DNA from: Naegleria gruberi
Taxonomy: Eukaryota
DNA: 64,000 bases
Direction: 5' to 3' (one strand)
Assembly: GCA_000004985.1 (NCBI GenBank)
Contig: GG738873.1
Positions 5,268 to 56,958 of this stretch are shown here, piece after piece. A program made the position numbers and the translations under genes. Numbering within the stretch: the first letter of the stretch is position 1; each line of letters begins with the position of its first letter. The notes beneath the pieces were generated by a model that saw only the letters and a program-made list of their open reading frames with translations, was not told where the DNA came from and did no database searches.

Positions 5268-5317
5268 NNNNNNNNNNNNNNNNNNNNNNNNNNNNNNNNN
5301 NNNNNNNNNNNNNNNNN
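5268..5317. other. 50-N scaffold gap
   Basis: Exactly 50 n characters. Confidence 0.99.
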
Positions 5318-8187: not shown

Positions 8188-8237
8188 NNNNNNNNNNNNN
8201 NNNNNNNNNNNNNNNNNNNNNNNNNNNNNNNNNNNNN
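8188..8237. other. 50-N scaffold gap between the two LINE copies
   Basis: Exactly 50 n characters. Confidence 0.99.
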
Positions 8238-18113: not shown

Positions 18114-18176
18114 TTTTTTTGGCTTGTTTTTGAATATTTTATATTGAAACGATATGATTTGGCGCCAACTAGTTTA

Positions 18177-36314: not shown

Positions 36315-36422
36315 ATCCACAATTTGTATATTATTGTAAATCAATAAATTCGTTATTGTAAAGTATAACACATTTCTAATTTTTGGTCCCCACCTTTTTC
36401 TAATGTTGAATAATCTTATTTA

Positions 36423-37886
36423 TTATTGGCTTTGCTTATTATTTAAGAGTTTTAGTCTTTTGGCAGCACTCTTTCTATATAAATGTTCCAACTTGGGGTA
36501 AACTTTTGCTTCTTCACAACAAGTATAAACCAGCTTGATATCATGTTCTTCAACATCCTTTTCTAAATGAGATATTATTGTTTTCCAATCAGGAATGGAA
36601 TCACTGAAATCCTGATTCAAAGCCTTTGTTCCTCCAAGAATAATGTACATTAGAATGACACTCTCCCATAAATAGCCTATAAGAGATTGCTTCACAACAT
36701 TATTTTTGACATGTTCTGAAACTAATCTCACAGCAAAACATCCTGTGATAGCATGTAGGGTAGCAATGTCCATCTTGTCACACTTCAAATATAAGGTCAA
36801 AGCAGCTTGGCAAAGGTCCTCCAATTCAAATAATAATTGATTATGATCTCCCAATATCATGGAGCATTGTACTGCAAATTCTTTCTGATCAATTACATCA
36901 CGAGCTTCTCTCATCAAGTTATGAATCAAGAATCCTCCCTTTTTTAATAAATCTTGTCTAAACTCATCGGTCAGATATTCTGGATGATTCTTTTCTGTTC
37001 TTTGAAGAATTTCAAGTAAGCTTTGAGGTTTTGAATCATCTGAAAGTGATTTCTTACCCAACGATTCAAGTTTTGGTTCAATATTCTGATAGGAATAAGC
37101 TTGATAGGCCAATGAATTGACAACCATCAAGGTATGGAAATTTTGGAGAATTGAATAACCTAACAAGATGATTGGATGAAAAGCTCCTCCAGAAATTCCA
37201 CTTAGCAATTCAACAACTGATTCATGAGACATGATATTCTCGAACAGTTCCTTCTCCAAGTGCATTGGTAGAATTTCTTCCTCTGAATCACCTTGTTGGG
37301 AACTGTTCATGACTTTAGATTGATCGTGTTGAATGACGTGTAAATAGACTAGAATGTGCATAAATCTACGATAGAAGAGAAAATCTGGACGATTCACACT
37401 AATTCTTCCCATGAAAATCTTATCGAAAATCCAGCTTAATTCTTCCTTAATGAAATGATCGAGTCTTTCCTTTGAAAAGTCCTTTTTCAATTGAGAAAGA
37501 AAAGGTTGATAGGTTTCTTCTTCCCATTTTCTCAATTCTGTGTTTTGATATTTAGCATTAGGATCAATTGGTACAAGTTTCTTCAAGTGATGATTCACAT
37601 TCTCCAAATACACCTTTCTATTAATAATTGGTTGTTCGAAATTTGCCTTAATGTGAAAGAGAGCTGACAAGACCATTGGTAAGTGATTACTCAATCCATC
37701 AGGGATCCTTTCATCCAATCCAAAACTAGGATACAAGTGCACACAAATATAATTCAACAACTCATCCATCCACAATGAATCATCTTGTGAGTCTGTGTCA
37801 ATGCTTTCCTTGGACATGAAATTGGCGGGAAAGATTTCTTGCATTAATTGTTCACTATTCTTTGAAATTTGAGAAAGGTCTGGCAT
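36423..37886 (-). CDS. hypothetical protein (487 aa)
   Basis: Single long ORF; no motif that I can assign with confidence. Confidence 0.4.
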   Translation of the reverse strand: MPDLSQISKNSEQLMQEIFPANFMSKESIDTDSQDDSLWMDELLNYICVHLYPSFGLDERIPDGLSNHLPMVLSALFHIKANFEQPIINRKVYLENVNHHLKKLVPIDPNAKYQNTELRKWEEETYQPFLSQLKKDFSKERLDHFIKEELSWIFDKIFMGRISVNRPDFLFYRRFMHILVYLHVIQHDQSKVMNSSQQGDSEEEILPMHLEKELFENIMSHESVVELLSGISGGAFHPIILLGYSILQNFHTLMVVNSLAYQAYSYQNIEPKLESLGKKSLSDDSKPQSLLEILQRTEKNHPEYLTDEFRQDLLKKGGFLIHNLMREARDVIDQKEFAVQCSMILGDHNQLLFELEDLCQAALTLYLKCDKMDIATLHAITGCFAVRLVSEHVKNNVVKQSLIGYLWESVILMYIILGGTKALNQDFSDSIPDWKTIISHLEKDVEEHDIKLVYTCCEEAKVYPKLEHLYRKSAAKRLKLLNNKQSQ

Positions 37887-38294
37887 GTTGCTTGTTTTTT
37901 TTGAATTGTTTCTCTTGAGATTTTTATTTTTAGAAATTCTATTTATTTATTGAGGAAGATTTTTTTGGAGTTTTGACATTTTTGTAAGTGGACATATAAG
38001 TGCGTATTAATATTTAATTGTGCGCATTTGTAAAATTAATTGAAAACAAGAATGATTCTGTCGTGGATTTCACAATAAATGAATGAGTGGTGTCATCAGG
38101 TTGGAATATATTGTTTACATTATTGATTAATGCATTTTCCAATTCATCATTCCTATGGCACAGTCTCAAGGTTAATATTAAGGTCATATTGAAAGGATGG
38201 ATGTAACCCTTAATAAGACCAAATACGACTGGGAACTCCAATTAGAAAAAATATTGGCAGGAAAAAATTACAGTGAAAATAGACTCCTAAAAAA

Positions 38295-41200
38295 ATGCTC
38301 TGTTTTCAACAGGAGAAGGAATTTCCTCACAAAAAGGAGTGTATGATAATGTATCTAATATTTATTATATTTCTTTGTCAATATTTATCATCATCAACAT
38401 CAACACCATCATTGGGTGGATTAATATTTATTAAGGCAGAACAAACAAGAGTCAATAAGAGACAACAAGATGATACAAGTTTTATCTATCCAACCTATAC
38501 TTCGGAACTCTATGCAGGTAGAACTGATTTCAGTTCATCTATGGACATTTTCTTTAAACAAATGATTCCATCACAGGTGGATTCTAGAATTATCTACATG
38601 TCCTCGAAACTCACCAATTCAATCTATCAATATAATGACACTGATAAGAGTTTGATACAGATATTGCAAGGGAGCTATATAGAAGGGGAGGACACCTTAG
38701 TAAATGGTGATTTACTGATGGTTGAGAAGGAAGAAGTCAATTCTATTCAGTATGATTGTTTATATTATAATATTGAATCTAGAATGTGGAAATATTCAAT
38801 GAGGGACAGAACATCTTCTCGATTAACTGTTTATGGATTGGAACAAGTTTCAAAATTGGGTGTCAATAGACCTTTCGGATTTTTGGATTGGGGAAAGAAG
38901 AATCGAGTGTATGGAGTAGTGGAGGGGAAATTATTTCATGTAGAAAGGGAATACAATTTGACTTGGAATTTCACACAAGTTAAGGAGCTTGATTTGGAAA
39001 ATACTCAATGGGAAGGTTTGGCCATGCATAAAAACAGTGAAATTATGTACTTGATTGCAAATCGTACAATTTTCATGGTTGACATGAGCAAGGACTTGTT
39101 CATTAAGAAATTACAAACTCATGAAAGTCCCAAAATACCTTTTGCTGTTTATCACGATGGACAAGATGAGTATCTTTACTTTACTGCCAATTACGATTCG
39201 ATTTTGGTAAAGTGTCCAACTAAGGAATGCGATAGTGCTCTACCCATCTATACTAGAGACGAAATGATTAGGTCAGGATGGAAAATATTGAGCATTCCGT
39301 CAGCATTTGCCATTACAAAAGATGTTTTCCTATTCAATTCGTATTTTCCAAGGAGGGATGATATTACACACCTTGCACTTTATTCAATGATGGATAATGT
39401 TGCCTATCCAATTTACTCAATGGATGGTCCTATTTGGAATGGTGTTAATGCTTTGAACAGTTCTATATTTCCAACAGGTAAGTTTACAAATTTTTGCCAA
39501 ATTACTATAAATATACAGCGGTAAACTTACTAAAACATGCTGATGGAAGAAAGGAATTGCTTATTAGTGATTATACGAAAATTAGATCAATCTCAATGAA
39601 AGATAGAACCATTTCAGTGGTAAAGGTAGACAATTTGTGCACTTCTTTCACACCACAACTGCCTGCACTCTCCAATATTGGCTCTTCGGTCAACCATTCT
39701 GATGGCAGCTCTACCATATACGCTGCTTCCATTCCAGATACTAATGCACAGTCTTACTCTATCAAAATAGCATCTAATGGGCACACTACGTGGTGTCCTC
39801 TCTCAACAGATATTGAGAACATACCAGTGCCTAATGAGAGCCCTCTGAATCAATCCATGTTTAATGATCCTTCTGGTATTGTCTATTTGAATGGAGAAAT
39901 TTATATTGCTGATACAAAATCCAATAGAATCAGAAAGATTACAAAAGATGCAAGAGTATTGACCTTAGTTGGAGGTGGTAATATTAAGGGAGATAACTTG
40001 ACAGGAACTGATACCTATGCGAATGCCCCTTTCGGTATTGCTGTTTGCAATTCAACAGGAAACGTTTATTTTAGTGTTTCTAACGACCATTGTCTCAAAG
40101 TCTACTCTCAACAAACAGGTCTTGTTCAAAACCTTGCAGGAGATTGTGGAAAACCAGGAATATTTAATTTTCCAAAAGCAATTTCATTGGTGGAGAATTT
40201 CCTCTTTGTTGCCGATTCAATGAATCATAGAATTGCGAGGGTTAATTTAGAGACACGTTTAGTGGAGAGTCTAATTGGAGATGGACAAGCAGGTGAGACA
40301 TCAGACGACAACTATAGCGTAAGATTGAATTCACCAACTGGGGTTCACTATTGTGATGGATATTTATTTGTAGCAGACACTAATAATCATAGAATATTGA
40401 AGGTTTCTCATATACTTGATGTAACAAGTTATGCATACGTTGAAGTCATAGCAACAGGTAAGTTAAAAATTTACATTTTTGGAATATTGACAAAATTACT
40501 AAAAATAGATGATGATGTGAAATTGGCATATCCATATGGTGTTCATGCTTTCAAGATGGGTTACAAAATGTTTTATATCATTACCAATACATATAACAAC
40601 AGATTAATCTTTGCACAAGAAACTCCTTCAAGATATTTCACAGAAATGGGAAGTGGATTGCCAGGTTACAATGGAGACCTTTCCATATTTGAGGCAAGTC
40701 TTTTCAATCCAAAGGGAGTCTGGGTATCTGACAACATTATCTATTTTACCGATTCATCAAATAACCTGATTCGAAAAATCAACTTGTCTCGATTATATTT
40801 TATGGTTGAAACTGTAGCTGGTGGGCATGGTGATGGTGGCTCAATTTTGAATACTCGTATCAAGATTACAAGTTTCTCTCAAGCTCCTGGAGGGATTGTT
40901 GTGACTGATATTCAAAACAACCTGATCAGATTGATAAAACAAGATGGAACTGTCTCTACACTTGTTGGAAGTGGTGGCACACTTTACAATGGAGAGCTAA
41001 TAACTTCCAAGATGGTTAATTTAAATTACCCTTTTGGAGTTTTTGTTTTCAATAATGAAATATACTATTCTGATTCCAAGAATCTGAGAATAAGAAAAGT
41101 GGATCTAGATGGAATCGTCTCAACTGTGATACTCGACGGTAGCTATCCTTCAGCTCTCAGAGTTAGACTTAATGGTGACATAATTTATGTTACTCAAACA

Positions 41201-43196
41201 GGAATTAAGATTTTCCATGCCAAAACAAGTGAATTCCAAAATATTGTAACAGACAGCAATTTTCTCAAAGCATCTGTTGAGTACGATTCAGATGATGGTT
41301 CGATTTATTATGCAACAGATACTTCTGTTGTCAAGTTGACTCCAAGATGTAAGAATGGTTATGTGTTGGATGACCAATTTTCTGAGTGTATTCCAGTATG
41401 TTTCGGATATAATCAATTGGATGTGGAACAAGTTTGTTCTGGACATGGATTGTGTCTAGAGCCAGATAACTGTGGATGTTTTGACCATTACACGGGTAAT
41501 CAATGTGAAAATGCCAAATGTTTCGGTCTTGATGTTAATAATCCAAATATTTGTAATGGAAGAGGTCAATGTGTCTCAGTTGACACCTGTTCATGCTCCC
41601 AAGGCTATTCAGGAATTGACTGTTCCATTCCAGAATGTTTCGGAATCTCTGGAAACATGTCATGTAGTGGATCAGAAAGAGGTAGATGCATTTCACTCAA
41701 CATGTGTCACTGTAATTTGCCTCATTATTCTGGAAGAGCATGCGAGTTAGCAAACTGCTTTGGAATTCCACAAAATGATGCAAAAGTTTGCTCTGGAAAG
41801 GGAAGATGTGTCCGTCCTAACGAATGCAAGTGTGATACTGATTTTTATGACAAGGATTGTTCCAAGTTTGATAATACGAATTGGACAGTTGGAGTTGTTG
41901 TGGGAATTACAGGCGGTTTTGTTATTTTGTTGATGATTGTTGGAGTTGTGTTGATTGTAGTGTTGAGAATTTATAAGAAACAAAAGAAAATATTGGACAC
42001 TGACCTCGAATTGGATCGACAATTGTTGAGTTCTGAAGAAATCAATGGTTATTCTCGTGGTCATACTTCAAATTCAAGTAATAGTGTGGAGGAAGATTTT
42101 TATATCCCACTGAATCAATTAAATATGGACAAACCAATTAAGAGATTGGGAAGTGGTGGTATTGGAAGTGTATTCATGACAAAGTAAGTGTTAAATTTTG
42201 CCTAAATTCTAACTTTTTCATCAATCTTATTTTGAAATATTTCCAAAGATGGAATAATATCATTGTAGCGGTCAAAGTGTTTGATTTGAATAATGAAAAC
42301 ATTGGAATTGAAGATTTTATCAATGAGGCCTTATTACTCTCAAGACTTCGTCATCCAAATATTATTTCTTTTTATGGAGTTTCTTCATCTCCAACCAAAA
42401 GATACATTGCCATGGAGTGTATGGATGCAAGCTTGGAATCCTATATTCAGAAAATGCAAGCATTGCAGTTAAAGCTTCCATTCCGTACAAAAGTGAAAAT
42501 TATTTCAGATATTTGCAGAGGTATCATGTATCTTCACAATTTACAACCAAATTTTATTGTTCACAGAGATTTGAAACCTGCAAATATTTTACGTAAGTTT
42601 ATTTGATTTTTGACATGACTCTAATGTGAGTGAAATAGTTGATAAGGATGGCAATTGTAAAGTTTGTGATTTTGGTTTGGGAAGAGTTTTATCAAAAAAA
42701 ACACTTTCGAATATTACAGCACAGGTTAGTACATTCAAACTATTTCGAATGATTATTTAACTGTATATAGATTGGCACATGTGCATACATGAGCCCAGAA
42801 ATCTCAGGATTCTCTGGTAAGGATATTGATCGTTCACACGTTAAGGCAATTGATATCTTTAGTTTATCCATAATTTTCTATCAAATATTATTCGAAGTGA
42901 TGGATCCATACTCGAGTCAAGATTTGAGAGTGGTGGAAAAGATTGGACTTAAGGAACCAATTCATTATGAATCTTTTTATCATTTGCATAGAGCCATTTG
43001 TGAATTCAAAGTTCGACCTTCAATTCCATTCAATACTATTGAGTCGTGTGTGGAGTGGTGTAAAGTTTATGATTTGGAAGAGAATGCAACAATTTATTGG
43101 AAATTATGTGAAGATGTTATAAAGGAATCATGGAAAGAAGAAGCTTCCGAAAGACCTCCTATTGAAAAATTGGTAGAAATTGTTGATTCATTGTAA
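38295..43196 (+). CDS. receptor-like protein: signal peptide, NHL repeats, EGF-like repeats, TM helix, Ser/Thr-type protein kinase; exons 38295–39477, 39519–40457, 40509–42183, 42249–42592, 42639–42724, 42771–43196
   Basis: NHL-type repeats (NRIRKITKDARVLTLVGG; HRILKV). Four EGF-like Cys patterns are followed by the TM helix VGVVVGITGGFVILLMIVGVVLIVVL. The kinase domain is split by three introns: GSGGIGSVFMTK | WNNIIVAVK ... HRDLKPANIL | DKDGNCKVCDFGLGRV ... | IGTCAYMSPE. All introns are GT..AG, 41–65 nt, and phases fit. Confidence 0.75.
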
Positions 43197-43222
43197 ACTG
43201 TTATAAATAAATATTTAAAAAA

Positions 43223-45073
43223 ATGTCATCATTGATAGATTGTGACAACACCTCTCAACACTATGAATATCTCCCCGAACAGCAATTACACTCACTAAAA
43301 ATCACACCAAATCATGATCACCAACCTTCTACAGCAAGAATTTCACTTCCCGTGATGAATACTCATGATGAGAATATTCAAATTGAAATTAATTCTGATG
43401 ATTATAATATTGATGAGATTAGTGTCGTGTTCTCGGGAGGAAATTTATCCGTGAACAAATGTTACTTGAAGGTGAAGAAGAAGTGTAATGAAAGGTTTGT
43501 TGTGAAATTGAGAGAATTGGAATGTTGTGATTTGATAATTATGAATGAATCGAAAGGGAAGATTGTGTTGGAATATGATTGTTTAATATTAAATCGATTG
43601 GAAATTTCGAATAACCAACAAGAAGAAGAAACGGTAGTGGAAAATCATAGTGATGTTGATTTTTGTGAATTGATAATTGGAGACGGTTGTCAATTTGAGA
43701 ATTATGCCAACTTGCAAGTGTTGAATTTATTGAAGGGTGAAGGATTGGTTAGAAATTTGGGAATGATGTTTTTTGGAAAGGATGTAGAAATCGAGTTGAA
43801 TAATTTGGAAAGTGTTGGAATTGTCAAATTTCCACAATTAGAAAGTTTTGTAAAAGAATTTAAATTAATTAATGGCGAAAGTGAACAAAATTTTACAGAA
43901 CCATTGCCTAGAGGATACAATTATCTCAACAGAGTTGCCCTTTTGAAGGGACTGATAGGGAAGAATACTAAAACCAAAAAACCACAAATTCTCTCCGACT
44001 CAATTCTAGAATATTTAAAGGAAAATCCTGTTAATTCATCAGATGATTTATCTGAGAAGGTGAATGAATATCTATTGAGAGTAGGTGGTACTGAGTACGT
44101 CTCTACATGGGTCTCAACTATTGCCCCGAATATTAGAAAAACACCATCCGCACAAGGTGAAATAAGTGAAAAATTAGAACCATGGACCACTGTTAATGTC
44201 AAATCGATTTATTGTGGAGCTGGAGAGAATGAATTCTGGGCATGCTTGGGAGAAGAGGCCTTTGTATCAACAGATTTTTTGAAAATTAAGCCAAAAGTCA
44301 ATCATCTACTCTATCCTAACATGAAAGGGAGTGATTTACTATCAATCTATGGACCGAACGAACCATTCCTCAACGATAACTTGAAAAATCAATCCAATCA
44401 AGAAATCATTGTTGTAAATACTCCAATATTGGACAGTAATTTACAGTCTATTGGAGAAAAACTTGCTGGAGATTTGGTAACGGTTTATGAATTTACTGAA
44501 ATTAATGGAAAATCACTTGTAAAAATATCTCCTGATGAGGAACATTATATTGAATCGGATTATCTTTCCTCTGAGATGGATAAGAATCTCCTCAATAGGA
44601 ATATTCGAGCATTCCTCGAATTAATTGCCTTTTGTGAAGCTACCTATACATTCGGATACAATCGACTCGTGAATGGAACACCAACCACTGATCCATTCCA
44701 AACATGCTACTCACACGGCATTGTCAATATCACAAGTAATCTCAATACTCATCCGTTCATTCTCGTCTCCCTTAATGCCACTCTAAAATCAACAGCAGCT
44801 GGAAAATATCAATATTTGAATAGAACTTGGCATTCCCTCCCTAAAGAAATTCACAACAATCTCTTTACACCATATGGACAAGACAGAGGAGCCATTGCAC
44901 TTTTAATGAGACGTGAAAGTCTTCAAGCCATCAAACAAGGCAATATTGAACTGGCCCTTAATTTATGTAATAAGGAATGGGCAAGTTTTCCAAACTCACC
45001 ATATGGTCAACCCACTAAAAAGATGGAAGAATGCTTGAAAAAATATTCAGACTTTCTATCAAGATTACAATGA
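43223..45073 (+). CDS. intronless protein with two SH3b-like modules and a possible lysozyme/chitosanase-like glycoside-hydrolase C-terminal domain (tentative)
   Basis: SH3b-like segments (EPWTTVNVKSIYCGAGENEFWACLGEEAFVSTDFL; DLVTVYEFTEINGKSLVKISPDEEHYIESDYL). A C-terminal segment (LIAFCEATYTFGYNRLVNGTPTTDPF) has an E-x17-D spacing reminiscent of GH46/GH24-type catalytic pairs. No intron in 1.85 kb. Domain calls are by eye and low confidence. Confidence 0.35.
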   Translation: MSSLIDCDNTSQHYEYLPEQQLHSLKITPNHDHQPSTARISLPVMNTHDENIQIEINSDDYNIDEISVVFSGGNLSVNKCYLKVKKKCNERFVVKLRELECCDLIIMNESKGKIVLEYDCLILNRLEISNNQQEEETVVENHSDVDFCELIIGDGCQFENYANLQVLNLLKGEGLVRNLGMMFFGKDVEIELNNLESVGIVKFPQLESFVKEFKLINGESEQNFTEPLPRGYNYLNRVALLKGLIGKNTKTKKPQILSDSILEYLKENPVNSSDDLSEKVNEYLLRVGGTEYVSTWVSTIAPNIRKTPSAQGEISEKLEPWTTVNVKSIYCGAGENEFWACLGEEAFVSTDFLKIKPKVNHLLYPNMKGSDLLSIYGPNEPFLNDNLKNQSNQEIIVVNTPILDSNLQSIGEKLAGDLVTVYEFTEINGKSLVKISPDEEHYIESDYLSSEMDKNLLNRNIRAFLELIAFCEATYTFGYNRLVNGTPTTDPFQTCYSHGIVNITSNLNTHPFILVSLNATLKSTAAGKYQYLNRTWHSLPKEIHNNLFTPYGQDRGAIALLMRRESLQAIKQGNIELALNLCNKEWASFPNSPYGQPTKKMEECLKKYSDFLSRLQ

Positions 45074-45168
45074 AAATCAAAAACTATTAAATCAAAATTT
45101 TTCAAACATCTTTTGCCCTCACATGGATGAGCACAAACGGAGAAGTAAAAATAAAACTTTAAAAAAAA

Positions 45169-45999
45169 ATGAGAATCTTGTCCGTACTTGCAAAATCCAA
45201 AACTTTAATTTCCTTCCACAACTCGGCAGCCAAATCATCGTCATCACTGCTTTTCGGAAAACAAATAAAGAAAAATGGAAATTTAATTAAGAATATTCAA
45301 TACAATTATCAACAGGAGAGAAATATATTTATTAGAACAAAGGAAACACCAAATCCTGCCAGTATTCAATTTTATCCTATGGAAGTGAAAGTGCTGGATG
45401 AGAAGGTGTATCCAGACATTTCTTCATTGGAAATTACTAATCCGTTGCAATCATATGTATCTCCTCTTGCCAAGACACTTTTTAAAATTGATGGAGTGAA
45501 GAGTGTATTTCTCTGTAGAGATTTTCTTACTGTAACAATTGATGATCCAACCAATTGGACCGATGTAAAACATGATGTATTCTCAAGTTTGAATAACTTT
45601 TTTGAGAGTGGAGGTATTGTATTAAATAGAGATGCTCAACCAAATCCTGATACAATGGTTCAGGAAGGAGATGATGAAATAATTATTGCAGTGAAGGAAA
45701 TTTTGGAAACTAGAATTCGTCCTATGGTTCAAGAAGATGGTGGTGATATTGTATTTTCGAGATTTGATGAAGAAACTGGTACTGTTTATGTCAAATTACA
45801 AGGAAGTTGTGCCAGTTGTCCAAGCTCTACAGAAACCTTAAAGAATGGTATTGAAAATATGCTCATGCATTATATTGCAGAAGTGAATGCTGTAGAACAA
45901 GAATTGGACGAATTAGATCAAATTAGTGAAGATCAATTGAAAAAGACTGAAGAAAAGCTTGCCAAAGAAAAGGAAATTATTGATCATTATACTAAATAA
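45169..45999 (+). CDS. NFU1: NFU1 iron-sulfur cluster scaffold protein (mitochondrial NifU-like)
   Basis: Matches NFU1 in the N-domain (IRTKETPNPASIQFYP...LFKIDGVKSVFLCRDFLTVT) and the NifU C-domain (IRPMVQEDGGDIVFSRFDEETGTVYVKLQGSCASCPSSTETLKNGIENML). Confidence 0.9.
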   Translation: MRILSVLAKSKTLISFHNSAAKSSSSLLFGKQIKKNGNLIKNIQYNYQQERNIFIRTKETPNPASIQFYPMEVKVLDEKVYPDISSLEITNPLQSYVSPLAKTLFKIDGVKSVFLCRDFLTVTIDDPTNWTDVKHDVFSSLNNFFESGGIVLNRDAQPNPDTMVQEGDDEIIIAVKEILETRIRPMVQEDGGDIVFSRFDEETGTVYVKLQGSCASCPSSTETLKNGIENMLMHYIAEVNAVEQELDELDQISEDQLKKTEEKLAKEKEIIDHYTK

Positions 46000-46141
46000 A
46001 TGAATTTTCTTTCTTGGATTCTTTTTAAATGAAATTTTAAAGGGTATCATTGGATTATTTAAAAGAGAAACACTTCCATTTTACTTAGAGTTATTATTTA
46101 TTTAATTATTATTCAAAAAGAATTATTCTCGAGTTAAAGGT

Positions 46142-47773
46142 TTAAGCAATAAAGCAAACAGTTGTAATATCATCGAACTTGCCACCAAGTTGGCCAATCG
46201 CAACAGCGAATGGTGTTCTGGCCCATCTATTGAGTGCAACAGTTCTGGCTTCAAGAGTTACTCTTCTAGCCAACTCGCAAGCTTGCAATTCACCTCCAGG
46301 AGTACCTTGAGAAGAATTGGCAAGTAAATTATCTTTCATGTCCCATATTAAATTTCCAACAGATTCTGGGAAGAGATTATCCCAAACGCCATCAGTTGCC
46401 ATCACAAGAACATCATCCTTTTCCAATTTGATTTCTTCATCAACAGCATGTTCTGGCAAATCATGGTAGGCGGTACTATTCCCTGGTGGAACAACACCAA
46501 GTTGGAATGGACAATTGAAATAATGTTGTTTTTCCTTAGTTTGGAAAATACAGGCTCCTTCTCTAAAAACTGCAAGGCCTGAATCTCCCAAGTTAGATGT
46601 TCTCAAAATTTTAGTATTCTTGTCGTAGGAAGCAATCGAAGCTGTGGTACTTCCAGCAAGAACTTGTCTTTCATTTACAATTAAATCATATGCCATTTGT
46701 AAAATCTTGTTTGGATTACTCAAAAGTTGGCTATCACCACCCTCACAAACAAGTTTGGCATTGTACATGAGCTGGTTACTGATGAGAGATGGATCAACTC
46801 CAACCTCGGCCCAACCTCCAACACCATCAGCAACACCAATAATTGTATAATTATCATTCTCAAAAGTGAAGAAGGCATCTTCTCCGCATTGTTCCTTATA
46901 ATCAGAAGAATCTAATGATTTTGGTGCAGCAAATTTCTTTCCAACTCCAAAACCACATGCTTGTTTGGCATGACTCTCAATGGTAAAATCAAATTCGGAA
47001 GGTATTGAAGCACCAACAGGTTTTTCTTGTTGTTGTTGTTTTCTGTACAAATATTGTGGTACGTCACTAGTAGTGGATGGTTTAGCATTCTGAACACAGG
47101 TATTTAAATTATTGTAGGATTGGTATTTGAGTGGGATCATTCCTAGGAGAGATGAATGGAAATGTTTAAAAATGTTGTTAGTAGAGGTATTAGTTGTGGT
47201 GGTGGTGGAGGAAACTGTCCAATTGCTATTATTAAACAAGTGGGTTGGCAAAACTGATCGAACTAAACTATGACTATTACTTAAAGCCTTTGAAGCAAGA
47301 CAAGTTGTAGTTTTTTGAAACATGGGTTCAGAAGCTTGATCTGATGAAGGTAAATCCGACTGAGAAGTTGTAGTAGAGGTACAAAACAAGTCCTTGTATT
47401 TTTTGTTTTGTTGTTCTGCTGCTGCTTCAGAGTGGATGAATAAAGTTGCTGCTGTTGTTGTAGCTGGTGTGTTGAGTGTTAAATTATTGCTCTTACTGCC
47501 TGCTGCTGAATGTTGAAAGGAGGAAATGGATAAATTATCTTCTTCTTCTTCAATAAAATCGAATAAATCTTCAATGTATTGTGGATGTTGGGAGTAACTT
47601 GGACTGTCTGGGTTTTCAAAAGAGGTATTAGATGGTTTTTGATTAATTTGACTTGTTGCTGCTTCAGAGGTAAAAGTATCAGCACTATTTGTTGCTTTTG
47701 TAGGGGTTAGCAAGGATGAGAATGGAAAACTATTTGAAGAAGGTAGAGACAATGATTGGTTTTGAGAGGCCAC
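46142..47773 (-). CDS. PP2C-family phosphatase of the PPTC7 type with a long low-complexity N-terminal extension
   Basis: GVADGVGGW, NLGDSGLAVFREG, QHYFNCPFQLG, ATDGVWDN and GGKFDDITTVCFIA all match PPTC7/SpoIIE-like PP2C. Confidence 0.85.
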   Translation of the reverse strand: MASQNQSLSLPSSNSFPFSSLLTPTKATNSADTFTSEAATSQINQKPSNTSFENPDSPSYSQHPQYIEDLFDFIEEEEDNLSISSFQHSAAGSKSNNLTLNTPATTTAATLFIHSEAAAEQQNKKYKDLFCTSTTTSQSDLPSSDQASEPMFQKTTTCLASKALSNSHSLVRSVLPTHLFNNSNWTVSSTTTTTNTSTNNIFKHFHSSLLGMIPLKYQSYNNLNTCVQNAKPSTTSDVPQYLYRKQQQQEKPVGASIPSEFDFTIESHAKQACGFGVGKKFAAPKSLDSSDYKEQCGEDAFFTFENDNYTIIGVADGVGGWAEVGVDPSLISNQLMYNAKLVCEGGDSQLLSNPNKILQMAYDLIVNERQVLAGSTTASIASYDKNTKILRTSNLGDSGLAVFREGACIFQTKEKQHYFNCPFQLGVVPPGNSTAYHDLPEHAVDEEIKLEKDDVLVMATDGVWDNLFPESVGNLIWDMKDNLLANSSQGTPGGELQACELARRVTLEARTVALNRWARTPFAVAIGQLGGKFDDITTVCFIA

Positions 47774-48775
47774 TTTCCGATATTGATTAAACTTAGCCTG
47801 AAGTGAAGAAGATGTTAGCTAGTTTTTTTTTTTTAAATTTAAATGAAAGATGGTAAAGTATGGCGCTTAAAAACTACAATTCTCTAAAAATAGAGTCGAT
47901 TTAAGAGTGGAAAAACAAAAAATAGTGGAACTCAAGTTGATTGTTTTAGTTTACATTGAAAAACATTTTTAAGAGAAGGAGTTGAACTGTAACCTCATAA
48001 ATTCCCCACCAGATTGTAAACATTAAGAAGATGGAGTTGTACAACAAAAAATATAAATATTAATAATTGCTTTCAAGAGGTGAGATCTCTGAACAAGAAC
48101 AAACTTATGATGTTGTTCATAATAGTATATTTATTGAATTTTTAAATATCGATTTTATGCATTTTCATGGTTTTTAACAGAGAGCAGCAACAATTATGTT
48201 TACAATACTGTAGTTGAACGTTACAAATAAGGTGATAGAACAATCAACACCTGCCCTCTTTAATATATTAAACCTTCCTATTCGGAAATAGAATAAGCTC
48301 ATAAAATAAGAAAGCACACGGAAGCGTTTACAATAAGTGTTGGATGCCACCAATCGCTTATTTACAATGGTATAATCGTAGATATTATATTCATTATCAG
48401 ACATCTGTCCTAGTAATCAATTAAAATTGCTTGATGGAAAGCAATTACAAGCTATCAACATTGAAAATAATTGAATTTATCTCTTACGATTCTCGGCATT
48501 GCTAGGGCCCAAGTGTTAATTTATCTCTTTAAAGCTTGCCAAAACGGAATAATTTAACGCGTTGCATCTCTCACGAAAGAATATTCTTCGGACTCTTGTT
48601 TACACAACACCATAAAGAAACGAAAAATTTGAAAAAAACAACTAACGCATAACAGCTAATTTAACCAGTAGAGAGAGATTTAATTCCGCATTCAATATCA
48701 CAATAGCAAACAACAACAACTAAAGCACACTCATTAGACGACTCTGAACCCTCCATCACTATTAGCTATCACAAA

Positions 48776-50296
48776 ATGCTAAGTAACAATAATAATATCA
48801 AAGTAGAAGAAGAAATTTTGAATGAGTCCAATATTCAACAAGAAGAATCACTCTTCCTTGAAAAACCAAAGAGAAGACAAGGAAAGAAGAGTGTCAAGCT
48901 TGTAGAAGAACCTATTATTGCTGCTTCTACATCTTCAGAAGATACCAATAATAACAATGATAACGAAGAAGAAGAAGAAGAAGCAGATGATGAATATTCC
49001 GCAGATGACATCTCAGCAGGTACTCATGGTAGTAATCCTTCTAGACAATGGCAAAAGGATGACACTTTTAATAATCAAGCAGGTTATTGCATCTCTGTGG
49101 GTATTACTACCCGTGATGAAAGTTTACCAATTTATGACACTCCTTGCAAAATGTACTCTAGTTTACGTTACAAGCTTCAATATAAGTGTGTCATTGTCAC
49201 ATCAGGATTGTCTGCCAGTTCAACTCCTAAACTCTTAATGTGTCGTGTCACAGTCATTGATGAAGAAACTAGTAAGGAAATTAAGAAAGATAACAAACCA
49301 ATCATTGATGATTCTCTCATTTCACTCAAATGCACAAGTACAAATGCCACTGCTGGTCAATCATTGGTATTTGAAGCCAATCACAAGATTAAATTCAAGA
49401 GTGTTTCATTCCATCATAATAAGAGCAAGTGGAGATTATTACTTCAACTCTTCTCTGACTCTAACCAAAGCATTAATACACCAGTACTTGTCATTAAGAG
49501 TGCTCCATTCCAAGTATACGCAAGAAGACCAAAGGTTTCTGAAAGAGATTCCACCAATGGTCTCCTCACCTCTACACCAGTTCCAACATCAAAGGAAGAA
49601 AAGAAACAAAAGAAGAAGAAGAATGAATTAAAAAAGAGAAAGAGATCTGCCTCAATGGCTAGTAAGGACATTGCTCCTCCAAAGATAGAAAAGCCATCCA
49701 CTGATGAAGAAACTAATGCACCAACCATTCCAATAGTATCAACTGAATCTTGTATTGCAAGTTCATCCAAGGATGCTCCAATCATTACTGAACCAACCAT
49801 TGCCAGCTCATCAACTTCAACCACCACATCTGATCCAACTCTTGTCAAGGAAGAACCAATCTCTCACACTGAAACCAAGACCTCCATCAAACAAAAGAAA
49901 AAGCTCCTTGATAACTTTTCCAAGACACTTGATACTCTCTTAAAGTTCCACTCAGAGATGGACGATGACAGTAAGAGACTTGCATTTGAAATGTTGCAAC
50001 AAAGAATGTACAATCACTTTTATTCTGATTTGGTGCAGCAACATGAATGGATGGCCCAACAAATGGCAATTCAACATCAACACCAACAAATGCAAGATAA
50101 CTTGTCGCCCCAAAATATTGAAACAGACCATGCTGTTCTTGAAGCTGGTTCTGCAGATGATATCATTGTTCAATGTGATAATGAATCTACCCACTATAAT
50201 GACCATATGGAACATGATCACTTTTTGAACATGTGTGACAGTGGCTCATTCGAAGATAATATGATTTTACACAATGATTACCATCCATTTATTTAA
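48776..50296 (+). CDS. hypothetical nuclear-type protein with poly-E/D and K-rich stretches
   Basis: 506-aa ORF with an acidic run (NDNEEEEEEADDE), a KKQKKKKNELKKRKR NLS-like stretch and a Q/H-rich C-terminus. Confidence 0.4.
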   Translation: MLSNNNNIKVEEEILNESNIQQEESLFLEKPKRRQGKKSVKLVEEPIIAASTSSEDTNNNNDNEEEEEEADDEYSADDISAGTHGSNPSRQWQKDDTFNNQAGYCISVGITTRDESLPIYDTPCKMYSSLRYKLQYKCVIVTSGLSASSTPKLLMCRVTVIDEETSKEIKKDNKPIIDDSLISLKCTSTNATAGQSLVFEANHKIKFKSVSFHHNKSKWRLLLQLFSDSNQSINTPVLVIKSAPFQVYARRPKVSERDSTNGLLTSTPVPTSKEEKKQKKKKNELKKRKRSASMASKDIAPPKIEKPSTDEETNAPTIPIVSTESCIASSSKDAPIITEPTIASSSTSTTTSDPTLVKEEPISHTETKTSIKQKKKLLDNFSKTLDTLLKFHSEMDDDSKRLAFEMLQQRMYNHFYSDLVQQHEWMAQQMAIQHQHQQMQDNLSPQNIETDHAVLEAGSADDIIVQCDNESTHYNDHMEHDHFLNMCDSGSFEDNMILHNDYHPFI

Positions 50297-50879
50297 ATGA
50301 CCCAATTGTTGGGTCATGTAATGGTGATCCACAATTTTTGTACAGTATATTGTTAACTAACTGAAATATTTCGGCCTTTTTCCATATGTTGTAAATAAAC
50401 ATGAGTATCCTTTTAATTATTATTAATTAGAACAATTTTTTTAATGCAATTGTAAATGTTTGGAAAGTGCATCATACCTTCTTAACAGTTCCAAAAACTT
50501 CTCTATTTCACCATTTATGGATCCTCAAATTTCTGCTTCCCACATCTAACAAATTGGTCTTTTTGCAATTCTATTGACAATGAAAGAAGTTGTTTCTAAA
50601 AGCTAGAAAATTATCTGGATATCTGAATATCTCGTTCATTTTGTATTGAATAAACTTCAATATTGTGCCATTCACATTGTCACAAATAACACTACTTCAA
50701 ACTTTCTTTGCAGTGCTCACTCATGTTCATAAACAACCGTTTGAAACTTGAACAAGTACATGAATGAGATTGCAAGTCCGATCTTTATATTGGCAACTGA
50801 ACTCCATGGAGAGTAGTATCTTGTGCCCGACCTTTCCTTGTGGAGAGACCAAGAACAAAGACCAATAACTTTCAAAAAA

Positions 50880-53800
50880 ATGGACAAATTGAAACTCAAC
50901 AACACTAATAGCTCAACATTCTTGCTACTATTGTTGTTTTTGCACTTGTTGTTTCTTGCTGCCCAACCAATTGTCCACGGTCAATCTTTATACCATGTAA
51001 AAACCATAGCAGGTAGTTATCCCTATGGTTACAATGGTGATGACATTGAACCTACCAAGGCAGAAATCACCCTACCTGATGGTCTTGCACTCTCTCCAAG
51101 CAACAATGGTGACATTTTCATAGTTGACAAGATAAATTGTCGAGTGAGACAAGTAGTGGCAAGTAGTGGTAAAATTAAAACAATTGTTGGTGTGGGTATT
51201 CCTGGTTCTGTCACGACAACTATAGCAACTATGGCTCGTTTGAATTATCCTAGTGCACTTGCTTTTCAGAACAGTGATGTCATGTACTTGTCTGATAATA
51301 GTCATGTTATTCGAAAGGTAGTATTATCTAGTAATTTGATTAGTACATATGCTGGTCAAGTTGGTGTACCAGGGAGTATTGGAGATGATGGAGTAGCTAT
51401 CAATGCACTGTTGAATACACCAAGTGGAATTGCCATCTCTCCTGTGAATAATAATTTATATATTGCAGATACCTCAAATAACAAAATTCGTGTGGTTTCG
51501 TATACGGATGGTATCATTAGAACATTTGCTGGAGGTGGAACAGATACATCCACTGTGGTACAGGATGCAACTAATGCACAGTTTAACTTCCCCACTTCCA
51601 TTGCAATCTCTAATAGTGGAGAAGTTTACATTGGCGATGACAAGATTAGAAAGGTGTTCAATAATGGCACCAGTGTACTTCTGTTCACTTCTTTTGGACT
51701 CTCTGGCCAGACTAATACAGTTTATGGAATGGCAGTATCTCCAATAACTGGTGCTCTCTATGTTACTGTTTCAGATAGAGTATACATGATTCAATCGAAT
51801 GGAGTTGCAACATTAATAGCTGGATCAGGAGCTGGCTATGCTGGAGACAATCAATTGGCATCCAATGCCATGTTCAGAGTCACAAGAGGCATTGCTATAT
51901 CCTCAAGTGGGGAGATTTTCATTTCTGATGGTGGAAATAACAGAGTTAGAAAGATTAACACCAACAATATCATCGCCACCGTAGCTGGAACAGGTTCCAA
52001 TCTTGCCTACAATGGTGATAATATTGAGGCAGTGAAGGCAAAACTCTTTGGCCCAGAATCGGTTGCTGTCGCTCCAAATAATGAGGTTATTGTGGCCGAC
52101 ACAAGAAATGATAGATTGAGAAAGATTTCACTTGGTGGAATAATCACAACCATTACTCCAAGTTATAGTTCACCCAGATCTCCTCTCGTGCCCAATGTAG
52201 GGGAGTACTATTTTGTTGATTCGTCAACTGTGAAATATCTCATATCTTCTAGTGGCATTGTAATAACTAAAGCTGGATCTGGAACTACTGGATACAATGC
52301 TGATAACATTCCCGCTACAAGTGCTCATTTAAATTTTCCAAAAGGAATTGCCAGATCCACAAATGGAGATTTGTTCATTACCGATTCTGGAAATCATCGA
52401 ATTAGAAAAGTGTTTTTAAATCAGACCATCATTACTGTAGCTGGTACTGGTACTTCTGCCTACAATGGAGATGGGCTATTAGCAACTAGTGCCAATATTA
52501 ATAATCCATATGGAATTGTACTGACCTCTAATAATGAAGTTATTTTTTCAGAGTATGAAGGCCATCGAGTGAGAAAAATTCTCAATGATGGAACCCTCAT
52601 TACCATTGCAGGAACTGGGGTGGATGGGTATAGTGGGGAGAATTTGAGCGGTTCTAATTCAATGTTGAGATATCCTGCTGGTCTTGCCATTTTATCCAAT
52701 GATGAACTATTGATTTCTGATTCCCAAAACCATGCCATTAGGAAATTATTTAAGAATGGAACTTTGATAACCATTGCTGGTACTGCACCACTGTATGGAT
52801 ACAATGGTGAGAATTTGCACCCTTTGGAAACTCAATTTTATGGACCAATGGGTGTAGCTCTATCTGCTGATGAATCTAAAATTTTCATTGCTGACACAAG
52901 TAATGGAAAGGTGAGAGCGATCTCTTTTGGTTGTGACCTACAGAATCAATGTAGTGGGCATGGAGATTGTGCAGTGAACAATTGTTCGTGTTATTCTGGT
53001 TGGAGAGGAAGTTCTGATTGCTCTCTCTTCTCATGTGAAACATTGAATGCCTGCTCTGGACTTGGTACATGTGTGAGTAATAATACATGCTCATGTACTA
53101 GTGGATGGAAGGGAAGCCTCGATTGTTCCCACTTCTCATGTGAAACATTGAACAATTGTTCAGGGCATGGTGCATGTGTAGGTCCCAATACATGTTCATG
53201 TGATTTGGGGTGGAAGGGAAGCCTCGATTGTTCTTTCTCATGTGAAAAATTGAATGCCTGCTCTGGACATGGTGTCTGTGTGAGCAATAATACGTGTGTT
53301 TGCGATTCTGGTTGGAAGGGAAGTCTGGATTGCAATCTCCCTTCCTGTGAAATGTTTAAAAATTGTTCAGGACATGGCTCTTGTTTGAGTAGTAATACAT
53401 GTTCGTGCTTGAGTGGATGGAAGGGAAGCCTAGATTGTTCCCTATTCTCTTGTGATGCTGTGAAAAATTGTAGTGGAAATGGAACATGTACATCAAGTAA
53501 TGGTTGTTCATGCCTGGAAGGATATGGTGGATTGAGTTGTGATAATAGAATTGTTCCTCCTACCTATGTCTCTCCACTTGCATCCAAGAATGGTCCAGTT
53601 ACTACTACAGGTAATTCTAACATTGGATTGATTGTTGGATTGGTTGTGGGTTTAACATTATTGGTATTGTTAATATTGCTTGCAATCATTGTTACCATCT
53701 GTCTCATTGTGAAATTAAAGAAGAAGAAAAGCAAACCACTGGTTACTAATGAAGAACCAATTGAAATGATAACAACCATTGATGAAAATGTTACTCAAAC

Positions 53801-54752
53801 AGCCAATAGTTCATTACTTACCTCAGATTTCCCAAGCGATACCTTTAACAATTCCTATTACCAGTTGAATTCTTCCAATACTAACACAAGTGCTACTTCT
53901 CCTCCTCAAAACACAGATCATTCTTTGCTCAAAGATAGATACAAGATTCAACAAGTTATTGGTCAAGGTGCATTTGGTAAATGTTATCTCTGTTTGGATT
54001 CTAAAAAGAATGACATGCCAGTTGCCATCAAGACTATTAGTTATGATCAAAGTAGACATTCTAAAATTATTGATGAATGTTCCAAAACACTTTCATACAG
54101 ACATGCAAATCTGGTTGAAGTATATGAATTCTTTGAAGCACAGATTATTCAATCTATTTGTATTGTAATGAAATTTTATGAAGGCGACTTGGAACATGCC
54201 TTGAAAGATTTGAAACAAGATGGAAAGATTGTCTCTGAGAAGATGATCATCTCCATCATGAAACAACTTGGAGATGGTTTGAACTATCTTCACCAAGAGA
54301 AACTAATTGTTCACAGAGATATCAAACCACGTAATATTTTCTACAGTAAATTGGACCGTGAATTGGATGAAATCCAAGTGGTTATTGGTGATTATGGAGA
54401 GGCAAAGGAAACTGGAGAAACTCAAAATTCAGTTGCAGGAACATTGCAATATATGGCGCCTGAGGTCTTTTCTAGAAAATACAGTTATAGTGCTGATATA
54501 TTTTCACTTGGAGTTTCACTCATTCAGGCCATGGCAAATGAATCCTTAGATTTAAACATTACAGCTCAATTATTATACGATAAGGAAGAAGTGGTGTTGG
54601 ACAGAACAATGGAACACTTGATATCAAGAGGTTACTCTGAGAAGCTTTGCAATTTTATTGTGACTATGGTCTCAAAGGAACCGAGTATGAGACCAACAAG
54701 TGCTGACATTCAAAATTTCACTCAAGATGATGGTGCCGAAAAGAGCATTTAA
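50880..54752 (+). CDS. intronless receptor-like protein: signal peptide, ~10 NHL repeats, 7 EGF-like repeats, TM helix, Ser/Thr-type protein kinase
   Basis: Signal peptide (MDKLKLNNTNSSTFLLLLLFLHLLFLAAQPIVHG). NHL repeats (LNYPSALAFQ; NNKIRVVS; GNHRIRKV). Tandem EGF-like repeats (CSGHG.C...C.C..GW.G..DCS), TM helix IGLIVGLVVGLTLLVLLILLAIIVTICLIV and kinase motifs (GQGAFGKCY, HRDIKPRNIF, DYGEAK, GTLQYMAPEV). The long ORF begins at 50823 but the signal-peptide Met is at 50880. Confidence 0.8.
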   Translation: MDKLKLNNTNSSTFLLLLLFLHLLFLAAQPIVHGQSLYHVKTIAGSYPYGYNGDDIEPTKAEITLPDGLALSPSNNGDIFIVDKINCRVRQVVASSGKIKTIVGVGIPGSVTTTIATMARLNYPSALAFQNSDVMYLSDNSHVIRKVVLSSNLISTYAGQVGVPGSIGDDGVAINALLNTPSGIAISPVNNNLYIADTSNNKIRVVSYTDGIIRTFAGGGTDTSTVVQDATNAQFNFPTSIAISNSGEVYIGDDKIRKVFNNGTSVLLFTSFGLSGQTNTVYGMAVSPITGALYVTVSDRVYMIQSNGVATLIAGSGAGYAGDNQLASNAMFRVTRGIAISSSGEIFISDGGNNRVRKINTNNIIATVAGTGSNLAYNGDNIEAVKAKLFGPESVAVAPNNEVIVADTRNDRLRKISLGGIITTITPSYSSPRSPLVPNVGEYYFVDSSTVKYLISSSGIVITKAGSGTTGYNADNIPATSAHLNFPKGIARSTNGDLFITDSGNHRIRKVFLNQTIITVAGTGTSAYNGDGLLATSANINNPYGIVLTSNNEVIFSEYEGHRVRKILNDGTLITIAGTGVDGYSGENLSGSNSMLRYPAGLAILSNDELLISDSQNHAIRKLFKNGTLITIAGTAPLYGYNGENLHPLETQFYGPMGVALSADESKIFIADTSNGKVRAISFGCDLQNQCSGHGDCAVNNCSCYSGWRGSSDCSLFSCETLNACSGLGTCVSNNTCSCTSGWKGSLDCSHFSCETLNNCSGHGACVGPNTCSCDLGWKGSLDCSFSCEKLNACSGHGVCVSNNTCVCDSGWKGSLDCNLPSCEMFKNCSGHGSCLSSNTCSCLSGWKGSLDCSLFSCDAVKNCSGNGTCTSSNGCSCLEGYGGLSCDNRIVPPTYVSPLASKNGPVTTTGNSNIGLIVGLVVGLTLLVLLILLAIIVTICLIVKLKKKKSKPLVTNEEPIEMITTIDENVTQTANSSLLTSDFPSDTFNNSYYQLNSSNTNTSATSPPQNTDHSLLKDRYKIQQVIGQGAFGKCYLCLDSKKNDMPVAIKTISYDQSRHSKIIDECSKTLSYRHANLVEVYEFFEAQIIQSICIVMKFYEGDLEHALKDLKQDGKIVSEKMIISIMKQLGDGLNYLHQEKLIVHRDIKPRNIFYSKLDRELDEIQVVIGDYGEAKETGETQNSVAGTLQYMAPEVFSRKYSYSADIFSLGVSLIQAMANESLDLNITAQLLYDKEEVVLDRTMEHLISRGYSEKLCNFIVTMVSKEPSMRPTSADIQNFTQDDGAEKSI

Positions 54753-56107: not shown

Positions 56108-56180
56108 CGCCCACCGTGGGGGTCGAACCCACGACCACAAGGTTAAGAGCCTTGCGCTCTACCGACTGAGCTAGACGGGC
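56108..56180 (-). tRNA. tRNA-Lys (anticodon CTT)
   Basis: Minus-strand sequence GCCCGTCTAGCTCAGTCGGTAGAGCGCAAGGCTCTTAACCTTGTGGTCGTGGGTTCGACCCCCACGGTGGGCG. It folds as a cloverleaf with a 7-bp acceptor stem (two GU pairs), anticodon loop CTCTTAA, T-loop GTTCGAC and A/B-box-like sequences. It closely resembles metazoan tRNA-Lys-CTT. Confidence 0.9.
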
Positions 56181-56887: not shown

Positions 56888-56958
56888 CTCGAGTGCCGGG
56901 AATTGAACCCGGGTCGCCAGAGTGACAGTCTGGAATGCTACCACTATACCACACCCGA
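56888..56958 (-). tRNA. tRNA-Asp (anticodon GTC)
   Basis: Minus-strand sequence TCGGGTGTGGTATAGTGGTAGCATTCCAGACTGTCACTCTGGCGACCCGGGTTCAATTCCCGGCACTCGAG. Anticodon stem-loop CCAGA/CTGTCAC/TCTGG, T-arm GGGTTCAATTCCC, GTGGTA D-loop. Confidence 0.88.

Follow-up and report, generated by a model that had tools for sequence, protein, structure and literature searches.

Work on receptor Ser/Thr kinases has concentrated on plants, animals and bacteria, and little of it concerns Discoba, a deep branch of the eukaryotes to which the pathogen Naegleria fowleri belongs. Here we describe two genes of the bacterivorous amoeba Naegleria gruberi that lie on one 64,000-nucleotide stretch of contig GG738873.1 (assembly GCA_000004985.1), referred to below as the window and numbered from its first letter. 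Gene 1 (six predicted exons) and gene 2 (one exon) are each predicted to encode a receptor with an NHL-repeat ectodomain, a stalk of EGF-like repeats, one transmembrane helix and a cytoplasmic Ser/Thr kinase. The closest functional precedent is PknD of Mycobacterium tuberculosis (Good et al. 2004, as cited in PMC6107167), a receptor Ser/Thr kinase whose sensor domain is an NHL beta-propeller (PDB 1RWL). PknD and the Naegleria proteins have in common an extracytoplasmic NHL propeller, a single transmembrane helix and a Hanks-type Ser/Thr kinase, and presumably also the logic by which the propeller senses and the kinase switches. The topology, however, is opposite: PknD has its kinase at the N-terminus and a single six-bladed propeller at the C-terminus, with no EGF stalk, whereas the Naegleria proteins are type I receptors that begin with a signal peptide and have about 12 blades, 4-6 EGF repeats and a C-terminal kinase, and would thus be PknD-like in their working without being members of the same group. 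An earlier note on this DNA had called the combination unusual outside plants and some protists, which is too loose a statement, the closest precedent for a Ser/Thr kinase with an NHL sensor being bacterial and not from plants.

As far as the ectodomain is concerned, the closest relatives are the teneurins, which carry the same Pfam types of EGF repeat (EGF_TEN, EGF_Teneurin) together with an NHL propeller and are among the best structural matches. Teneurins are type II proteins in which the EGF repeats precede the NHL propeller; they also carry a toxin-like C-terminal domain and a YD shell, but no kinase. The Naegleria proteins, by contrast, start with a signal peptide, place NHL before EGF and end in a kinase, and no YD/Rhs or toxin-type family is among the listed Pfam matches of either gene. 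Plant wall-associated kinases likewise combine an EGF ectodomain with a TKL-group kinase. More generally, the plant receptor-like kinases (RLKs) resemble the Naegleria proteins in their type-I, single-pass topology, in their Ser/Thr (TKL) kinase and in having expanded within one lineage, and the kinase-less Naegleria relatives described below are comparable to plant receptor-like proteins (RLPs). They differ in that the gene 1 kinase matches CTR1, MLK and TAK1 ahead of the RLK/Pelle members 6CTH and SOBIR1 and that the gene 2 kinase does not appear to be of the TKL type; moreover, we know of no plant RLK with an NHL ectodomain.

Among kinases, Arabidopsis CTR1 and human ZAK/MLK and TAK1 are the best matches to gene 1 and share with it the W...RP motif of subdomain XI. 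These are cytoplasmic kinases, whereas the gene 1 kinase lies behind a transmembrane helix and contains, between subdomains IX and XI, an insert peculiar to its family. The gene 2 kinase is best matched by ULK, NEK, CDPK and STE20 kinases, from which it differs by having DYG in place of DFG. A tandem-propeller extracytoplasmic sensor coupled to a cytoplasmic kinase is also found in the hybrid two-component sensors BT4663 and BT4673 of Bacteroides, but these are bacterial, use another propeller family and have a histidine kinase as output. No literature on the two proteins was found when Naegleria was combined with NHL or receptor kinase; gene 2 has a database entry, dating from 2010, for an uncharacterised protein, and no entry was found for gene 1. 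We regard both as a lineage-specific variant of the receptor Ser/Thr kinases.

Architecture of the two receptors

Taken together, the evidence makes it likely that the window holds two intact genes for type-I receptor Ser/Thr kinases, that these are not duplicates of one another, that they belong to a family in which an ectodomain cassette has been shuffled, and that their introns differ by ordinary turnover. The predicted features of gene 1 are the following (aa, amino acids):

38295..43196, + strand: gene 1, 1550 aa, exons 38295-39477, 39519-40457, 40509-42183, 42249-42592, 42639-42724 and 42771-43196
38295..38402, + strand: region of the signal peptide, aa 1-36, of which aa 16-34 form the hydrophobic core, from hydropathy
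38403..39535, + strand: N-terminal orphan domain, aa 37-400
39478..39518, + strand: intron 1, 41 nt, phase 1, GTAAGT..AG
39554..41341, + strand: NHL-repeat region, aa 407-985, spanning intron 2 (Pfam NHL, E 1.8e-17)
40458..40508, + strand: intron 2, 51 nt, phase 1, 18% GC, GTAAGT donor, ACTAA branch-like motif
41348..41860, + strand: four EGF-like repeats, aa 988-1158
41882..41971, + strand: transmembrane helix, aa 1166-1195, hydropathy 3.04
42137..43184, + strand: kinase domain, aa 1251-1547, TKL-type by similarity, holding introns 3-5 (Pkinase, E 1.7e-43)
42184..42248, + strand: intron 3, 65 nt, phase 2, directly after the glycine loop of the kinase
42593..42638, + strand: intron 4, 46 nt, phase 1
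42725..42770, + strand: intron 5, 46 nt, phase 0, GTTAGT donor, within the activation segment

Those of gene 2 are:

50880..54752, + strand: gene 2, single exon, 1290 aa, ATG at 50880
50880..50978, + strand: signal peptide, aa 1-33, from hydropathy
51000..52934, + strand: NHL region, aa 41-685, 12 blades (Pfam NHL, E 5.9e-43)
52932..53540, + strand: six EGF-like repeats, aa 685-887
53622..53711, + strand: transmembrane helix, aa 915-944, hydropathy 3.4
53940..54719, + strand: kinase domain, aa 1021-1280, non-TKL Ser/Thr type by similarity (Pkinase, E 2.9e-46)

The order of domains is thus the same in both proteins, namely signal peptide, NHL blades, EGF stalk, transmembrane helix, low-complexity juxtamembrane region and kinase, with the orphan domain of ~360 aa inserted after the signal peptide in gene 1 only. 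Pfam recovers Pkinase, NHL, TEN_NHL, EGF_2, EGF_TEN and EGF_Teneurin, and the EGF stalk is of the tenascin/teneurin type in both. Each protein has one N-terminal and one internal hydrophobic segment (the signal peptide and transmembrane calls are based on hydropathy, which confines the helix to aa 1177-1195 in gene 1 and aa 926-944 in gene 2 when drawn more narrowly), and what lies on the N-terminal side of the internal segment bears extracellular hallmarks, with 13-14 N-glycosylation sequons per ectodomain and the Cys-rich EGF repeats. Judged by these features, both are predicted type-I single-pass membrane receptors. The catalytic set is complete in both kinases (GxGxxG, VA(V/I)K, the alpha-C Glu, HRD..N, DFG/DYG, (S/A)PE and the Arg of subdomain XI), and the loops typical of receptor tyrosine kinases (HRDLAARN or HRDLRAAN) are replaced by HRD(L/I)KPxN, so that both are RD-type and apparently active Ser/Thr kinases. 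In gene 1 the catalytic loop reads HRDLKPAN, accompanied by DFG, MSPE and ERP; in gene 2 the motifs are IGQGAFG, VAIK, DECSK, HRDIKPRN, DYG, MAPE and MRP. The layout proposed in the earlier note from the letters alone, including the Ser/Thr-type loop, is therefore borne out by the Pfam and hydropathy analyses, save that the EGF repeats number four and six and do not reach seven.

The ectodomain of gene 2 is the better defined of the two. Its 12 blades probably form two six-bladed propellers; 11 of the 12 were scored with a profile built from the same blades, which makes this count internal to gene 2. A model of the NHL region obtained with AlphaFold2 from an alignment of 26 sequences (predicted local distance difference test, pLDDT, 79.9) is all-beta, with ~46 strands in four-strand units, and its best PDB folds according to Foldseek are a teneurin-like protein, the NHL domain of SOQ1 (template-modelling score 0.72), teneurins and NHLRC2; the tandem-propeller ectodomains of LRP6 and of Bacteroides BT4663/BT4673 are matched as well. 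Weak Pfam matches to SGL, Arylesterase and Str_synth, which come without a defined stretch, are the sole support for an enzymatic propeller of the lactonase type. The EGF stalk is visible in the DNA itself as a tandem array (52983-53440) with a period of 105. When gene 2 is compared with its recent duplicate P0002 (XP_002676275.1), a 91% identical paralogue on the same scaffold, the NHL regions are 94.5% and the kinases 99.6% identical (Fisher p 6e-5), and P0002 lacks 104 aa that correspond to three EGF repeats, leaving it with three against six in gene 2. The ectodomain is thus the faster-changing part, with a stalk whose length shifts by unequal recombination.

In gene 1 the blade profile derived from gene 2 finds eight matches, all between aa 407 and 909. 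The first ~400 aa, on the other hand, gave no Pfam match, no NHL and no match to the blade profile, and a search of 1.84 billion representatives with the N-terminal domain returned its own allele as the sole true relative. P0243, considered as a further relative, was rejected as a spurious match inflated by repeats. A single-sequence AlphaFold2 model shows this domain as beta-rich but is of too low confidence to be used (pLDDT 39.9).

Gene 1 as an intact gene

Does gene 1, with its five introns and no counterpart in databases, represent a real gene? Its model was built by enumerating combinations of donors and acceptors, which were judged by an open frame and by canonical kinase motifs. A single combination of canonical introns keeps the frame open with the kinase motifs intact, including IGTCAYMSPE. 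Removal of all five introns (41, 51, 65, 46 and 46 nt, in phases 1, 1, 2, 1 and 0) restores every kinase motif; removal of intron 5, for instance, restores ...AQIGTCAYMSPE. Three of the introns fall within the kinase domain, after aa 1265, 1380 and 1409; the earlier note had likewise placed three in the kinase domain and had put the five introns at 41-65 nt. The introns are poorer in GC (18-28%) than the window (~35%) and contain branch motifs resembling ACTAA/CTAAC. On the sense strand of 38295-43196 the donor-like string GT[AG]AGT occurs five times, four times at the start of a predicted intron and once inside intron 4; in gene 2, GT[AGT]AGT has one site, inside an EGF repeat. Intron 2 is in frame and free of stops, so that its removal is predicted from its splice signals only. 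The ATG at 38295 lies in an A-rich context (aaaaaaATG) like those of gene 2 and the neighbouring genes, and the coding sequence ends with the stop at 43196.

A database of 5.8 billion proteins, in which gene 2 finds itself, gave no self-match for the complete gene 1 protein or for the part of it that comprises the transmembrane helix and the kinase; the full-length search returned one weak bacterial NHL match. The product of gene 2 is 100% identical over 1290 aa to the N. gruberi NEG-M entry XP_002676184.1 / EFC43440.1 / D2VI20_NAEGR (P0001), named 'NHL repeat-containing protein'. The flanking models are D2VI15 (36423-37886) and D2VI19 (48776-50296), between which three UniProt accessions (D2VI16-18) stand for four genes with open reading frames (ORFs). 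If accession order follows position, this fits the view that gene 1 has no public model, for which an annotation gap is the more likely cause.

Comparison with a second strain indicates that gene 1 is maintained. Contig L002, 98.4% identical in DNA to window positions 32621-40459, covers the first 2165 nt of the gene (2121 coding nt) with no indels and no stops, and contains intron 1 with the same sequence and no indel. The two alleles differ by 17 synonymous and 16 non-synonymous changes, i.e. a ratio of non-synonymous to synonymous proportions (pN/pS) of 0.25 (binomial p 1e-4 against neutrality), and gene 1 therefore behaves as a functional gene: it is intact and under purifying selection, and its reading as a pseudogene was rejected.

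Contigs L001, L002 and L003 all come from one ENA sample, ERZ929261 (project PRJEB11402), which is deposited as a 'metagenome' and contains an N. gruberi-like strain. For two receptor-kinase paralogues encoded in it, P0003 and P0124, no near-identical counterpart turned up in the public N. gruberi protein sets.

Two kinase groups

In a single-sequence search of the PDB, the gene 1 kinase matched CTR1, a lectin RLK (6CTH), TNNI3K, B-Raf and TAK1. A profile built from gene 1 and its relatives P0122-P0125 scored CTR1 with 163 bits, ZAK with 144, TAK1 with 139 and TNNI3K with 136, followed by Eph kinases, SOBIR1 and B-Raf; the RLK/Pelle members among the matches (6CTH, SOBIR1) thus ranked under CTR1, ZAK and TAK1. 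A database search yielded four close relatives and then plant TKLs of the CTR1/EDR1 type together with bacterial Ser/Thr kinases, at 29-38% identity, and the motif of subdomain XI is SW..ERP in gene 1, while P0122 and P0125 have CW..RP. On these similarities the kinase is classified as TKL-type (CTR1, MLK/ZAK, TAK1, Raf). A metagenome scan with an alignment of gene-1-type kinases returned generic kinases of ~30% identity, with no close relatives among the matches listed.

The gene 2 kinase led elsewhere, to CDPKs, STK24, NEK7 and ULK1 in the single-sequence search and, with a profile built from gene 2, P0003 and P0038, to ULK2 (136 bits), CDPK (134), ULK1, NEK7, NEK2 and the STE20s. Its top 60 matches consist of ULK, CDPK, NEK, STE20, CaMK1, PKR and IKK-alpha kinases, the sole exception being 9P9U, a chain labelled EGFR that scores in both profile lists and was discounted for that reason. 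By resemblance to ULK, NEK, CDPK and STE20 the kinase is placed outside the TKL group, and because no one family is clearly ahead, it is best called an unclassified non-TKL Ser/Thr kinase.

A probable ectodomain cassette with several outputs

The earlier note had by implication treated the two genes, one intron-rich and one intronless, as a pair. Are they? Their proteins are only ~25% identical, their kinases appear to belong to different groups, and neither ectodomain resembles the other more closely than it does kinase-less NHL-EGF membrane proteins of Naegleria, from which it follows that they are not duplicates and that the implied pair does not hold. The ectodomain of gene 2 matches that of the kinase-less N. 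gruberi protein P0035 with 38.5% identity and 478 bits and that of the kinase-bearing P0003 with 477 bits, but that of gene 1 with only 27% and 153 bits, and the best match of the gene 1 ectodomain is also P0035. Further Naegleria NHL proteins show how varied the C-terminal part can be. P0016, P0025 and P0035 have a bare anchor only, and P0038 has a kinase of the gene 2 type without an EGF stalk. In P0036 (XP_002677176.1), an N. gruberi protein of 2103 aa encoded on another scaffold, the NHL ectodomain is followed by a multi-pass region (seven transmembrane segments, 7TM) and an RGS domain; here an output of the G-protein type is joined to the same sensor module.

The simplest reading of these relationships is a lineage-specific NHL-EGF surface family of Naegleria in which one ectodomain cassette is attached to varied outputs (TKL kinase, non-TKL kinase, 7TM/RGS, bare anchor). 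A more far-reaching version, to which we would give slightly less than an even chance, holds that the cassette was independently wired to at least two unrelated kinase classes, to 7TM/RGS and to bare anchors, forming a modular receptor system, possibly for recognition of prey or surfaces, that is convergent with the RLK/RLP system and with PknD and partly invisible in the annotation. What is the significance of the two genes? One sensor design on different kinase classes in a single amoeba offers a clear natural case of domain shuffling during the evolution of receptors, and genes 1 and 2 are concrete candidates for environment sensing by a bacterivorous amoeba. The reference annotation of N. 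gruberi also appears to miss or truncate members of the NHL-EGF receptor family; P0123 (XP_002679619.1), annotated as a kinase of 303 aa and nothing more, probably represents a receptor of similar kind whose model has been truncated. The practical weight is nevertheless modest, given that gene 2 has been public for years and that the proposed roles are read from sequence.

Possible mechanism

By analogy with PknD and with tandem-propeller sensors, a ligand or a surface may bind to the propeller face, and this binding would alter the oligomeric state or pairing of the receptor, or its geometry. The kinases could then trans-phosphorylate Ser/Thr residues in their activation loops, which both kinases possess, and in this way pass the signal into the cell. 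Adhesion or prey recognition and the sensing of a soluble cue are equally plausible roles.

Alternative explanations

Could gene 1 be an artefact, in which separate genes for an ectodomain and a kinase were wrongly joined, or else a decaying pseudogene? Either would explain why gene 1 lacks a public gene model, and in favour of them stand the absence of a matching public protein, the three accessions for four genes and the annotation of its paralogue P0123 as a kinase alone. Yet exon 40509-42183 of gene 1 reads without a break from NHL blades into the glycine loop (LGSGGIGSVFMTK), by way of the four EGF repeats, the transmembrane helix and the juxtamembrane region. The paralogue P0124, encoded on metagenomic contig L001 (34% GC) and 37% identical to gene 1 aa 727-1416, presents NHL blades, four EGF repeats, a transmembrane helix and a TKL kinase up to subdomain VIII in one frame, and gene 2 consists of one ORF throughout. 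With ectodomain, transmembrane helix and the start of the kinase sharing one exon in each gene, a mis-joined cytoplasmic kinase, the scenario that the earlier note had named as one that would overturn its reading, is excluded. With the canonical introns and the constraint seen against the second strain also speaking against it, we consider an artefact or a pseudogene very unlikely. Even more improbable is that gene 2 arose as a processed retrocopy of gene 1 or of another intron-bearing member of the family. Such an origin, one of two that the earlier note had offered, would account for its single 3.9-kb exon (the one ORF at 50880-54752 confirms that it has no introns), and the 42% identical paralogue P0003, whose gene lies on L003, does have a 5' intron that is missing from gene 2. 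Gene 1, however, is ruled out as the parent by its low identity and different kinase group. The hallmarks of retroposition that had been suggested for inspection are not there either: no poly(A) tract was found after the stop codon of gene 2, where the one A-run present belongs to the start context of the following gene, and no target-site duplication was found, the longest direct repeat shared by the flanks measuring 9 nt, the length obtained most often when the flanks are shuffled. The remainder of the P0003 gene is likewise one long ORF, so that the intron-poor state appears to be old in the gene 2/P0003 subfamily, and an average of 0.7 introns per gene, as given for N. gruberi in PMC5862402 (citing the genome paper), means that an intronless gene needs no special explanation. 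The retrocopy origin was accordingly rejected. Intron positions vary among the paralogues in general, with L001 lacking introns 3 and 4 of gene 1 and having its own introns elsewhere, one of them inside the blade motif ADSG|NNRI, which fits ordinary gain or loss of introns, a sufficient explanation of five introns in one gene and none in the other; independent intron loss was the other origin that the earlier note had offered.

The two remaining alternatives concern the history and the function of the family. Both genes may descend from one ancestral NHL-EGF receptor kinase, the kinase domain of which was replaced in one lineage. The equal domain order, the EGF repeats of the same type and the location of gene 1, gene 2 and P0002 on one scaffold of 461,873 bp would be in keeping with this, but kinase-less members interleave with kinase-bearing ones by ectodomain similarity, and P0038 combines a gene-2-type kinase with a stalkless ectodomain; the data discriminate only weakly between this scenario, which we deem unlikely, and independent fusions. 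Somewhat less unlikely, though still doubtful, is the proposal that the ectodomains serve mainly in adhesion or as prey-recognition (phagocytic) receptors for bacterial or substrate surfaces, with the kinase coupling contact to the cytoskeleton. It draws on the combination of NHL and EGF, which is that of teneurins, adhesion molecules; on the glycan binding of the tandem propellers of BT4663/BT4673; on the greater divergence of the NHL region than of the kinase between gene 2 and P0002 and the change in EGF number, as expected for a surface under changing selection; and on the lambda-lysozyme-like gene that adjoins gene 1. On the other hand, the faster change of the ectodomain could reflect weaker constraint, or gene conversion of the part encoding the kinase, and the adjacency of the lysozyme-like gene may be due to chance. 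Our preferred reading, that of two intact, non-duplicate receptor kinase genes with a shuffled cassette, has points against it as well. The splice junctions of gene 1 are predictions, most of all those of the in-frame intron 2, and its N-terminal domain is an orphan. The kinase groups are assigned from best matches to solved structures and from motifs, and the placement of gene 2 among non-TKL kinases is ambiguous. Closure of the blades into exactly six-bladed propellers is presumed for both genes, gene 1 being without a usable structure, and the ligand and the signalling mechanism are proposed by analogy. Finally, independent fusion of the cassette to two kinases is indistinguishable from an ancestral receptor kinase that underwent replacement of its kinase domain.

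The surrounding locus

The window has ~35% GC, long ORFs and very short introns, and includes the following assembly gaps:

1-2822: assembly gap
5268-5317: assembly gap
8188-8237: assembly gap

Two ORFs for reverse transcriptases (RVT_1), at 3213-5096 (-) and 8350-10461 (+), adjoin these gaps; they are probably copies of retroelements and may have caused the gaps. Genes 1 and 2 are separated by a spacer of 7.7 kb with four unrelated ORFs (a lambda-lysozyme-like protein, NFU1, a PP2C/SpoIIE phosphatase and one unknown), in good agreement with the ~7 kb and the unrelated genes that the earlier note had seen there. The first of these ORFs (43223-45073, +; 616 aa) starts 27 nt past the stop codon of gene 1, an extremely short spacer, in a good A-rich start context. 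It has no Pfam match, and its C-terminal ~110 aa match the structures 3D3D and 1AM7 of phage lambda lysozyme (E 7e-19); it may be a bacteriolytic enzyme that this bacterivorous amoeba gained by lateral transfer. The gene for the PP2C/SpoIIE-type phosphatase (46142-47773, -) also lies between the two receptor kinase genes, a position that is probably coincidental.

Another protein kinase, which an intron appears to split (16498-17370 and 17451-18170, -), has neither NHL nor EGF repeats and is weakly similar to the gene 2 kinase (tblastn E 2e-7). Within 26 kb upstream there are four genes for RCC1-like proteins, at 12262-15867 (-), 26402-28567 (-), 29934-32084 (+) and 33234-36314 (+), three of which also match Kelch-type repeats and one of which also matches a fibrinogen C-terminal domain; they constitute another local cluster of beta-propeller genes. 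Downstream of gene 2 lie tRNA-Lys(CTT) at 56108-56180 (-) and tRNA-Asp(GTC) at 56888-56958 (-).

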